Shown: positions 29,280 to 44,400 of the stretch, in pieces
Layout: each line of letters opens with the position of its first letter
How positions within the stretch are numbered: position 1 is the stretch's first letter
NCBI GenBank assembly: GCA_012295275.1
Contig: CM022667.1
Span: 16,616,001-16,680,000 of the forward strand
Source of the DNA: Chrysomallon squamiferum
Taxonomy: Eukaryota; Animalia; Mollusca
DNA length: 64,000 nucleotides
Reading direction: 5' to 3'
Notes under the pieces: model-generated
The model's input: the letters and a program-made list of their open reading frames with translations, nothing else
Told to the model about the DNA's origin: nothing
Databases searched by the model: none
Program-made: the position numbers and the translations under genes

Positions 29280-32193
29280 TCATTTACTTGTTGTTTCCGG
29301 CATCTTAGAGGTGATAAGTGGTGTTATTTTCGTTCTTGAACACAAAGCCACGCCATATTCTGGTTTCCATGAACCAATAAGGTATGTTTGTGGAGGACAT
29401 TTACAGTGACCATCATCACTAAAGTATTTCTGTTCATCTCCTCGTAACACATGTCCTGATGGTGTTTTACAGTTACGTTCTGTAATAATAATAATAATAA
29501 TAATAATAATAATAATAATAATAGTAATTATAATAATAATAATAAAAATGATAATAACAACGACAAATAATATTACTAACTAAACAGTCTTTTTTATTGT
29601 CTACTCTAGTATAATAAAGAATTCGATTACTACTATTATAATTGCTCCTACTATTTCCACTAATACTACTAATACATTTATTACTACTACTACTACTATA
29701 ACAACTATTACCACTACTACTCCAAATACCACTAATTATAATACCAATACATTTCCTATTAGTAATACTATTGTTATTGCATTTAGCACATTATTAGAAG
29801 TACTGATTCTACTACTGCCACATATTTTACAAGACATCCACAATAATAATTTCTTAGTCTTCGTTACTGGCTGTTGTTATTACTCTTGCCACTATAAAAT
29901 AAACATCAACAACAACAGCTACTACACGACAACTATTAATACTATCATTGCTACTACAACTTCTGCTACTAATTCTACTACTAATACTATTGCTACTACT
30001 AATAATTATAAGTCTAACATTATTATTACTAATCCTGCCTTTAATGATAATAGTAAGCCTACACCTACTAATAATAGTTGGTCGAACTACACTAATAATA
30101 CTACTGCTAGTATTAATGCTACGATTACTGGTACTAACCAGACTTCTAATAATTATACTTTCACTTCGTCTACTGCTGTTGGTATAAGGAGATACTGAAA
30201 CGTTGCCTACCTCGACATGTGTATGTTCCACAGGGATCAGGTCCTTCAGGATCGAAACACATTGGTGGAGAATAATTAGGGTATCTACAAAGAATGTCCA
30301 CTCCAAGTGGACCGTAAGCATGCTCACAAAAACACTGGTACGCACAATTCACAAACATTGGAACGAATTGTCCAACTCTGTACATTTGTCCGTTGTAAAA
30401 GCAGTATTGTGGCACAGCTGTCGTATGTGCAGAACAATAAGAACAACAAGAACAGCAGGAATAATAATAATAATAATAATAATAACAACAGTAACAACAA
30501 CAACAATAATAACAGCAACAACAACAACCTTAATAATAATAATAATAATAACAATAATGATGAAAATAGTAATAATAATGATAATAATCACAATAGCTGT
30601 TGTAATAACAATGAAATGAATCTAAAGTTTAATTTTAATATTGTGTATTTTTTCTAACTTTGTCGGTATGCATACAACTACGTGAATATATCAATATATC
30701 TAGAATGTTTATTATCACAAACTTAGCCCAACTTAAGCATAAACTAATCATCCTTAGGGTTTCAGAGATTCAAAATTTCTTTTTATTTATTCATCAATAT
30801 ATAAAGAATTAAACATGATGTATAATCTAATTTCCAGTATTAACATAATCAACATAAGACGTTACAAACATTTATTTCCAGTATTATTTTAAGATTAATA
30901 AATATTTTTAAACTTAATATCCTCAGTGGCGAAACCGAGCACCTGATTTGTTTTGCATGTTGGAGACATTGTACTAATTTCAGTTATTAATTGTCAAATA
31001 GGACCTCTACAGATTCCCACAATTTTAGACCTGGATATGATTCCATTCAGCCATGTTCACGGCAGAGTTTACACTTTTAATATGACATCGTTACTCATTT
31101 AACGAGAAGAAGATAGAGAGAATTCTTAATATTAAGTAAACTATTCGCTGCACTCAGACACACTAAAAGGTGTATGATCTTTACAAGATAGGTGCAGGAC
31201 AAGACGTGTACATTTCAGAATTGTTTTCTTCACATTTGAATCTGCGCTGTCTGCTAAGGGAGAAACGTGACTTTTGAGGTATTGTACTTTTAAAGTGTGA
31301 GAAGAAAGGAGATAAATGAAAATCAAACTTATCCAGAAGATATTTGTGGGTTATCAAATGAAATGACAGATAAATATATAATATAGCATTGTGAAAGCGA
31401 AATTCCCAGAAGAAAAATAAACCCAAGTCTGGTTGCTTTATGTTCGTTTCATTGTTCTTGTTTGATCTTTTTCATAATTTCTTTTTCATTCACACGTTGT
31501 TAGTGAGTTCAGCACATCCCTCTTAACGTCACAGAAAAGCGACTGTCTCCTCTCAGCTTCACATCGCATAAATCCAGAGTCGCCAGTTTAGAAAATGAAA
31601 ATTCTAAAATGAATCACATTTAGTAAATCATTATTATTATTATTATTATTATTGTTGTTGTTTCAGAATCTACTTTTTTTTGTATTCATCAGATAAAAGT
31701 GCGTATGCATGACATGAATGGATGTAGTTGATATGTGTACAACGAGTAACCTAGCATATTCTCTACCAGATAAACTGTTCATTATACACTGAGAATGGCT
31801 TCCTTTCATGGACAAAAAGCCACGCATTATACTATTAATTATTTCGCTTTAGCTTTTGTTGTAGTTGTAGTTGTTGTTGTTGTTGTTATTATTATTATTT
31901 TTTATTGACATCATCATTATTATAGTTATTACTGTCATTGTTGAGACCGTAGTTATTATTATTATTATTGCTGTGGAAGTTGCTGGTGGTAATAAATGAT
32001 GTAGCTGTTACTGCCTGTTAATAAACAGCAATACTAATAATAACAATAAATATAATAATAATACTAATAATACTAATACTACTACTAATAATAACAATAA
32101 TAATTACAAATTACCTCGAGTTGTTGACATTGACAAGACAGACGAAATAATAAAGTTCAAACAGAAGACTGAAAACAGCGTGTGAACAGCCAT
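29280..32193 (-). CDS. Array unit 2: secreted Cys-rich protein, SP + 8-Cys VWC-like + 4-Cys module (~161 aa)
   Basis: Exons 32115-32193 (MAVHTLFSVFCLNFIISSVLSMSTTR), 30211-30417 (AVPQYCFYNGQMYRVGQFVPMFVNCAYQCFCEHAYGPLGVDILCRYPNYSPPMCFDPEGPDPCGTYTCR), 29288-29479 (ERNCKTPSGHVLRGDEQKYFSDDGHCKCPPQTYLIGSWKPEYGVALCSRTKITPLITSKMPETT). The last exon found in unit 4 is deleted here; read-through gives SK* at 29280. Confidence 0.75.
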
Positions 32194-41417: not shown

Positions 41418-44400
41418 TCAGCCAACAACTGGTTCAACTAATGGCGTTGTTGCTCGTGGTGCTGGAGTATTTATAGAGCAGCGAGCCTTTCCTTGTTCTG
41501 GTGGAAAATCATCTTGTGAGTCTGGTTTTGGACAAAAGCAAATACCACCGTCTCCGAAAGTCGCTGTTTGGTCACCAACTAGAACCTGGCCAAATGGAGT
41601 TATACAGGTCCGTTCTTTAAATTAAAGTAAAAAAATAAAAAAAGGTATCTATCTTTGTCTCCATATTAGATTGTATATGTATGTGCGTATCTCTGTCTCT
41701 GTGTATATATATGTTCGTATGTATGTAGGTATGTCGGTGTACATATGCATTTATCAATAACTATTTGTCAATATTATTATATATTTTTTCTTACTGTGCC
41801 AAATATTTATTCATTTACTTGTAGATGTTATAAGTGGTGTTGTTGTCGTTCCTGAACACAAAGCCACGCCATATTCTGGTCGCCATGAACCAATAACTTG
41901 TACTTGTGGAGGACATTTACAGTCACCATCATCACTAAAGTATTTCTGTTCTTCTCCATGTAACACGTGTCCTGATGGCGTTTTACAGTTACGTTCTGTA
42001 ATAATAAAAAAATAATAATAATAATAACAACAACAACAACAACAACAAATAATAATACAAAATAAACAATCTTTTTTTCATTGTATGCTCTAGTATTATA
42101 ACGAATTCGACGACTACTAATTTTATTGTCCTACTATTTCCACTAATACTACTAATACATTTATTACTACTACTACTATAACAACTATTACCACAACTAC
42201 TCCTAATGCCACTAATTATGATTCCAATAAATTTACTGTTATTAATACAATTAATATTACATTTAGGACATTATTATAAGTACTGATTCTACTATTGCCA
42301 CATATTTTACAAGACCTCCACAATAATAGTTTCTAAGTCTTCGTTACTGGCTGTTGTTATTACTCTTGCCACTATAAAATAAACATCAACAACAACAGCT
42401 ACTACACGACAACTGTTAATACTATCATTGCTAGTACAACTTCTGCTACTAATTATACTACTAATACTATTTCTACCAATAATAATTATAAGTCTAACAT
42501 TATTATTACTAATCCTACCTTTAATGATAATAGTAAGCCAACCACTGCTAATACTAATTGATCGAACTACGCTAGTAATACTACTGTTAGTATTAATGCT
42601 ACGATTACTGGTACTAACGAGACTTCTAATAATTAAACTTTTACTTCGTCTACTGCTGTTGGTATAAGGAGATACTGAAACGTTGCCTACCTCGACATGT
42701 GTATCTTCCACAGCTATCAGGTCCTTCAGGATCGAAACACATTGGTGGTAAATAATCAGCGTATATACAACGAATTTCTAATTTAAACGAAGAATAATCA
42801 GTAGACTGACAACGACACTCGTACGCACAACGCTCATAATCTGGAACGACTTGTCCAGGTCCGTACATTTGTCCATTGTGAGAGCAGTGTCGTGGTATCG
42901 GAGATGATGGTGTAGGTGGCGGTAGCTCTGTGGTATGCGCAGAACAGTAAGAACAACAACAACAACAGCAATAATAATAATAATAATAATAATAATAATA
43001 ATAATAATAATAATAACAGCAACAACAACAACAACAATAGTAATAATAATAATAATAATAAAAATTATAAAAGTAACAATAACGATGAAAATAATAATAA
43101 TAATGATAATAACAACAGCAACAATCACAACAGCTGTTGTAATAATAATGAAAGGAATCTAAAGTTTAATTTTAATATTCTGTATTTTTTATAACCTTGT
43201 CGGTATGCATACAACTACGTGAATATATCAATATATCTAGAATATTTATTATCACCAACTTAGCCGAACTTAAGCATATGCTAATCATCCTTAGGGTTTG
43301 AAAAACTCAGAATTTCTTTTTATTTATTTATCAATATATAAAGAATTCAACATGATGTATAATCTAATTGACAGTATTAACATAATCAACATAAGACGTT
43401 ACAAACATTTATTTCTAGTATTATTTTCAGATTAATAAATATTTTGAAACGGAATATTCTCAATGTCCTATCCGAGCACCTGATTTGTTTTGCATGTTGG
43501 AGACATTGTACTAATTTCTGTTATTAACTGCCAAATAGGACCTCAATAGATTCCCACAATTTTAGACCTGGATATGATTCCATTCAGCCATGTTCACGGC
43601 AGAGTTTAAACTTTTAATATAACATCGTTACTCATTTAAAGAGAAGAAGACAGAGAGAATTCTTAATATTAAGTAAACTATTCACTGCACTCAGACACTC
43701 TAAAAGGTGTATGATCTTTACAAGATAGGTGCAGGACAAGACGTGTACATTTCAGAATTGTTTTCTTCACATTTCAATCTGCGCTGTCTGCTAAGGGAGA
43801 AAATATGAAGAAACGTGACTTTCGAGGTATTGTACTTTTAAAGTGTGAGAAAACAGGAGATAAATGAAAACCACACTTATCAAGAAGAAGATATTTGTGG
43901 GTTATCAAATGAAAGAACAGATAAATATATAACCTAGCATTGTGACAGCGAAATTTATTGAATGAACCCTGGGAATATCCCATATGATTTTCCGAAGCTT
44001 ATCAATGTAGCAAAAATAAACCCAAGTCTGATTGCTTTGTATTCGTTTCATTGTTCTTGTTTGATTTTTTTTTTTTTTTTTTGGATTTCTTCAACCACTG
44101 TTAGTGAGGTCAGCACATCCCTCTTAACATCACAGAAAAGCGACTGTCTCCTCTCAGCTTTACATCGCACAAATCCAGAGTCGCCAGTTTAGAAAATGAA
44201 AATTCCAAAATGTATCACATTCAATAAATACACTATTATTATTATTATTATTATTATTATTATTATTGTTGTTGTTGTTGTTGTTGTTGTTCTTGTCGTT
44301 GTTGTTCTTTTTGTTTCAGAACCTACTATCTGGTTTGTATTCATCAAATAAAAGTGCGTATGCATGACATGAATGGATGTAGTAGATATGTGTACAACGA

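Follow-up and report, generated by a model that had tools for sequence, protein, structure and literature searches.

One-sided amino-acid change in a duplicated VWC-like exon of Chrysomallon squamiferum, probably under positive selection

Within a 64,000-nucleotide stretch of the Chrysomallon squamiferum genome (assembly GCA_012295275.1, contig CM022667.1, positions 16,616,001 to 16,680,000; hereafter the window, numbered from its first letter), two small genes, H and E, are tandem duplicates that differ sharply in one exon, which encodes an eight-cysteine domain resembling the von Willebrand factor C (VWC) domain. The acceleration is specific to this exon, here termed V, and to copy H, and we consider it probable that positive selection after the duplication drove the divergence of H. 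An earlier note on this DNA had spoken of strong positive selection; positive selection is also our best reading, with dN/dS above 1, whilst "strong" overstates a signal that becomes borderline once multi-base codons are dropped and that comes from a pair picked as extreme.

H and E belong to a minus-strand array of related small genes extending from about 22 kb to 64 kb of the AT-rich window (31% GC). A phase-1 leader exon, consisting of an ATG and a hydrophobic stretch, is present in seven copies, at 63085, 54902, 49752, 44871, 40271, 32193 and 28056, the last carrying a stop. It leads to an eight-cysteine V exon or to a shorter five-cysteine F-type exon, and V exons are followed by a four-cysteine K exon. 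V exons were found at 61.5 kb (A), 58.6 kb (B), 52.8 kb (C), 47.8 kb (D), 42.9 kb (E), 34.8 kb (G) and 30.4 kb (H), and the many broken members include C, D and G together with several K, F and leader exons. The earlier note had treated these as repeated units of one gene; the seven signal exons rule out one long multi-unit gene, and the units are instead small paralogues, each possessing a signal-peptide exon of its own. The array is a birth-and-death family of separate small genes, and from sequence their products are likely to be secreted. RNA contigs from all three RNA runs (one study) splice the 3' end of V, at exactly the position of 30211/42691, to the K exon, and contigs of one run contain the joint between signal exon and V; both junctions derive from other family members and not from H. 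In run X2, which comes from another sample and whose contigs include intron sequence, 122 contigs match the E exon, which indicates a family larger than the part seen in the window. At 42931, a contig of RNA run X1 links a V exon to the end of a Thr-rich exon that was not located in the window, which suggests that certain members of the family have more than one V domain.

The two duplicated blocks, delimited by self-alignment, are 10-12 kb long and lie at about 24122-34250 (with gene H) and 35167-47250 (with gene E). The introns between V and K differ by 8% between E and H and by 24-35% from those of the other five copies, which makes E and H the right comparison and rules out a wrong pairing of units. 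Gene H comprises an intact exon 1 with an ATG, a predicted signal peptide of 26 codons and a phase-1 donor (32115..32193, minus strand, as are all exons of both genes), the divergent V exon of 207 nucleotides (30211..30417, unit 2 of the earlier note), and exon 3 with a four-cysteine K domain and a Thr-rich tail (29280..29479, donor at 29288). At its 3' end lie a read-through stop at 29282-29280 and an AATAAA at 29259. Gene E comprises exon 1 with an ATG and predicted signal peptide (44793..44871), a V exon of 237 nucleotides close to the family consensus (42691..42927, unit 4 of the earlier note), a four-cysteine K exon (41819..41995) and a fourth exon with a second K-like domain ending in a stop (41418..41614), which has no counterpart in the H block. 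Joined in silico, H is open for 161 amino acids and E, including the second K-like exon, for 229. Both V exons are phase-1 at either end with AG/GT borders, that of E having nine additional N-terminal codons and one additional internal codon.

Between the two V exons, 30 of the 68 aligned codons change the amino acid, in agreement with the more than 20 counted in the earlier note. Its single synonymous change (AAC/AAT) is present, and we found a second, TAC/TAT, which adjoins the one-codon gap and hinges on how the exons are aligned; only 2 of the 36 codons that encode the same residue in H and E are silently different. As the note had also stated, all eight cysteines and the motif PPMCFDPEGPD are kept in both. 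The proportion of differences is 0.26 at non-synonymous sites (pN), 0.10 at synonymous sites (pS) and 0.085 in non-coding DNA. A shift in H from charged to hydrophobic or aromatic residues, described earlier, is seen in composition: over codons 11-60, D+E fall from 6 in E to 2 in H and K+R from 5 to 2, F/W/Y rise from 7 to 11, and the grand average of hydropathy moves from -0.74 to -0.07. The direction of the hydropathy changes over codons 10-38 (10 up, 3 down, p = 0.09) is a trend that does not reach significance. The C-terminal part of H stays near E, whilst its first two thirds are less charged and more aromatic, and H has lost the motif IYADYL, which is common to B, E and a Gigantopelta aegis relative, P0003, described below.

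The exon exceeds the divergence of the DNA around it. H and E mismatch at 45-46 of about 205 aligned bases of V (22%), as compared to 433 of 5120 unmasked columns (8.5%) of duplicated non-coding DNA, a comparison that leaves out exons and the more divergent edge of the duplication holding copies D and G; the earlier observation that the flanking introns are more alike than the exon holds. After correction for GC and CpG content, 19.7 differences are expected in V and 46 are observed, which excludes GC/CpG mutability as the cause, whilst the K exon (18 observed, 16.5 expected) and the signal exon (9 observed, 7.5 expected) match expectation. Among 25 non-overlapping non-coding windows of 204 columns (mean 17.2 mismatches, standard deviation (SD) 5.5), none exceeds 28; the V exon is 5.0 SD away from them in mismatches and 4.0 SD in events, with 33 events after merging of adjacent changes against 14.8 expected (z = 4.0). 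The excess is also one-sided. Using A, B, C and G to polarise the differences assigns 36 of them to H and 6 to E and leaves 3 unpolarised, whereas three flanks split 85:69 with 39 unpolarised (exon versus flanks, Fisher p = 2.7e-4). When 45 changes were placed at random, the reading frame and all eight cysteines survived in fewer than 0.1% of simulations, which indicates that the exon remained constrained as it diverged.

Selection was assessed by codon maximum likelihood under MG and GY models, with copy D (stops, frameshift) left out of all codon models and C and G used in part. Pairwise omega (dN/dS) between H and E is 2.7-3.6 (p 0.010-0.046). The earlier note had proposed a dN/dS test, and on the H branch this gives an omega of 3.4-4.5 (p 0.007-0.027). 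Without the 13 gap-adjacent codons, omega is 6.6-12 (p 0.003-0.016); the branch-site test gives an omega2 of 5.0 (p = 0.014), or 19 (p = 0.002) on the trimmed alignment. The other five copies alone favour M2a over M1a (p = 0.003), with two sites, both of them multi-base. The selection signal is real but moderate.

Several observations weigh against selection as the cause, and the first of these are statistical. Background omega is itself 0.9-1.25, and H differs from the background at p 0.05-0.06 on all codons. Twelve codons differ at two or three bases, nine of them adjacent, and multi-nucleotide changes are reported to inflate and mislead branch-site tests (10.1101/165969); silent sites being few, the count with single-base codons only is 18 replacements to 2 silent changes (p 0.06-0.11). 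None of the p values from the selection tests is corrected for H-E having been picked as the most extreme pair, and one sliding non-coding window reaches 31 events, close to the 33 of the exon.

Conversion among the copies is the serious competitor among the rivals. The E exon could have been overwritten from an A/B/C-like majority from which H escaped, so that the gap would represent old, near-neutral divergence rather than a post-duplication burst; were this so, the H-E gap would be older and selection weaker. Exon divergence among A, B, C and E is 9-15%, against 22-38% for their introns, and low silent divergence in all pairs makes exon-level conversion in the family plausible. In a 217-nucleotide piece of intron (52331-52577 versus 42311-42569), C is nearer to E (5 differences) than H is (10), possibly through gene conversion between paralogues. 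The exon tree fails to group E and H as a pair with confidence (support 40-63), few states in codons 13-59 are unique to the two, the K-exon differences mostly lean to H too, silent ones included, and the pN of H to A, B and C (0.29-0.35) is close to the intron divergence (0.24-0.28). On the other hand, H is about as far from A, B and C at silent sites (pS 0.15-0.16) as E is (0.13-0.14), both above the E-H value of 0.10; E stands near none of the other copies in the window (13-17%); codons 12, 35, 60 and 78 have states common to E and H; and an H-branch omega above 1 is independent of the intron clock. We regard overwriting of E as unlikely and infer that the excess stems from selection rather than from past conversion.

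A second alternative, which we rate below the overwriting of E, is that the central tract of H was copied in by conversion from a distant paralogue, or arose through a few multi-base mutations under relaxed constraint, with the deficit of silent changes due to chance. The 12 multi-base codons, with a dense cluster at codons 38-50, would fit this, as would the match of H to G. aegis P0003, and not to E, at R22, E40, V49 and D50, which also counts against post-duplication selection. Among 45 changes that create no stop, the chance of seeing at most two silent codons is 0.02-0.07, and the family size indicated by the X2 contigs points the same way. The signal nevertheless strengthens when codons 39-51 are removed, the merged events still far exceed expectation, and silent differences are as rare among the same-residue codons as stated above. 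As for a donor, X2 has a single contig on the 5' half of H at 85% likeness, which is H itself, so that no close donor appears among these contigs, contigs showing presence only.

The idea that H is no longer functional and lies in a local hot spot of mutation would draw on the many broken copies in the array, the frameshifted X2 allele and the missing RNA contigs described next, but it is largely refuted and very improbable, given that the frame, splice sites, signal peptide and 8/8 cysteines are intact (less than 0.1% by chance) and that neither silent sites nor flanks are elevated.

The state of H in other material also counts against selection. In X2, the H allele is frameshifted by a 22-nucleotide deletion over codons 31-39, and it has three further replacement differences and one silent difference, one of the replacements hitting the conserved Pro of a VP motif. 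At least one sample besides the present genome thus has a broken H, as birth-and-death turnover would lead one to expect. No RNA contig covers the 5' half of H in three RNA runs, which are small and give no evidence that it is silent. For E, no X2 contig with its own letters at 42784, 42786, 42788 or 42805 was seen, a hint that turnover of alleles or copies is fast in E too; the four E-specific letters in 42784-42805 amount to three replacements and one silent change.

To place the family, an exhaustive search of 1.84 billion representatives returned eight matches at E <= 0.001, of which two cover the whole domain, both from the vent snail G. aegis: XP_041375961.1 (P0003, "von Willebrand factor C domain-containing protein 2-like") and XP_041377059.1 (P0008). 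By themselves these two relatives would point to a gastropod as the probable host. P0003 shares with H a signal peptide, Pro-rich linker, eight-cysteine V domain, four-cysteine K domain and Thr tail, at 166 amino acids as compared to 161, and is 51% identical to the V exon of E (E = 1e-10). Its cysteine spacing is 18,2,1,10,9,10,4, whereas that of the window V exons is 18,3,1,12-13,9,8,4. The G. aegis proteins carry automatic names only, with no function on record, and two genes were found there, compared with about ten units here, many of them broken. The E exon gave no match in a word-based search of longer proteins, and searches with P0003 and with an alignment (A1) returned nothing beyond the G. 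aegis proteins. ESM Atlas matches all scored below 0.9 and are no more than leads to VWC families.

The window V exons match no VWC-type Pfam family even at E 1. For PF23334 (VWC2L-like domain; brorin-like), to which the window exons likewise have no match, the homologue P0003 passes narrowly (28.2 bits, cut-off 27), and for the canonical VWC family PF00093 it falls below the cut-off (19.6 against 27.6 bits); it also matches a Cys-rich stretch of MUC5AC (E = 4e-6). Canonical VWC domains (PF00093) have ten cysteines, whereas the window V domains have eight and no CC pair. The SVWC family, which we take to be PF15430, is similar in comprising small soluble eight-cysteine VWC-type proteins in expanded families, and eight cysteines are likewise present in H, E and A. 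SVWC proteins have a single domain, whereas here a K exon is spliced after V. The pattern given for SVWC is C-(18,23)-C-4-C-(10,16)-C-(6,23)-C-(8,13)-X-P-X-C-C-(1,5)-C (PMC11515477). The window spacing keeps a CxC and has no CC, and so fits neither this nor the ten-cysteine pattern; the cysteine spacing and the missing CC exclude membership of SVWC. The family appears to be undescribed: literature searches found no paper on it, the two G. aegis proteins are the only full-domain relatives found, and the hologenome paper on that snail (PMC7895826), as far as its main text was covered, does not mention VWC.

A predicted structure of H has a predicted local distance difference test score (pLDDT) of 66, with residues 48-68 unreliable, and contains four beta strands (4-7, 10-13, 27-32 and 39-44). 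Its best fold matches are to CCN3 vWC, FnI and mucin (MUC2) domains, none of them significant; the best Foldseek E value is 0.49, with a template-modelling score of 0.45 to CCN3 vWC. A single-sequence fold of E (pLDDT 47) is unusable. We infer that the V domain may adopt a VWC/FnI-type fold, the N-terminal subdomain of which consists of a hairpin and a three-stranded sheet.

If post-duplication selection is the correct reading, the 10-12 kb duplication would have been followed by a burst of positive selection on H, which would have rebuilt the first two thirds of its eight-cysteine domain on an unchanged cysteine frame, as expected if H were a soluble microbe-binding protein gaining a new specificity. 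Such a secreted microbe-binding role is our tentative first choice over mucus, growth-factor or gamete roles, though somewhat less likely than not, because the leader peptide, disulfide-locked beta domain, copy turnover and diversifying change resemble those of soluble recognition proteins. By way of analogy, MdSVWC1 is reported to bind microbes and promote phagocytosis (PMC11515477), the vWC domain of CCN1 is reported to bind peptidoglycan (PMC7060279), and granularin is called a snail opsonin in the title of a reference in PMC11515477. With its frameshifted allele in another sample, H looks like a short-lived experiment. It is conceivable, though doubtful, that gastropods possess an undescribed family of two-domain VWC-like secreted receptors, with a cysteine pattern unlike SVWC, which diversifies through rapid gain, selection and loss of copies and so recognises microbes, symbionts perhaps among them. 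On this view H would have passed its adaptive burst and be on the way to being lost, one genome still having it intact while another has it broken. Mechanistically there is nothing new here, since small secreted cysteine-rich proteins are well known to undergo positive selection once duplicated; E and H nonetheless form a natural pair for comparing binding, with a common scaffold and 30 replacements, and if the ligand is microbial they would add a candidate recognition family in snails.

The remaining V copies, all on the minus strand, are A (61307..61543, intact, after signal exon 63010-63085), B (58409..58645, intact, with no signal exon of its own found), C (52637..52840, with a frameshift near 52661 and signal exon 54827-54902), and the pseudogenes D (47674..47872, stops and frameshift, signal exon 49674-49752) and G (34721..34895, a 62-nucleotide deletion). 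B is possibly the second V of gene A, so that A and B may together form one of these multi-V genes. At the edge of the duplication, the D/G pair (34253-34890 versus 47258-47819) differs by 31% in exon and 17% in intron, as compared to 8% elsewhere, and D and G share a two-codon insertion; this edge is possibly the duplication breakpoint or an older patch. The F-type exon at 36960..37145 (minus strand), encoding the five-cysteine N-terminal half of a V domain, follows the signal exon at 40193-40271, and its duplicate, near 26430-26530, has stops. A second five-cysteine F-type exon at 22110-22310 (minus strand), with an in-frame stop near its end and an unclear acceptor, is probably a dead copy.

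Outside the array, a separate plus-strand gene at 4872-15047 contains exons for sushi (Pfam E = 1e-5) and kringle (E = 1e-15) domains, a stretch rich in Ser/Thr at 13664-14119 and a likely transmembrane exon at 14616-15047, and on these predicted features looks like a membrane receptor. One of its introns holds a tandem repeat of about 55 bases (12935-13444). Within the array, a GC-richer stretch of about 200 bases at 59815-60020 interrupts the intron after a truncated K exon at 60.5 kb and is possibly a mobile-element insertion.

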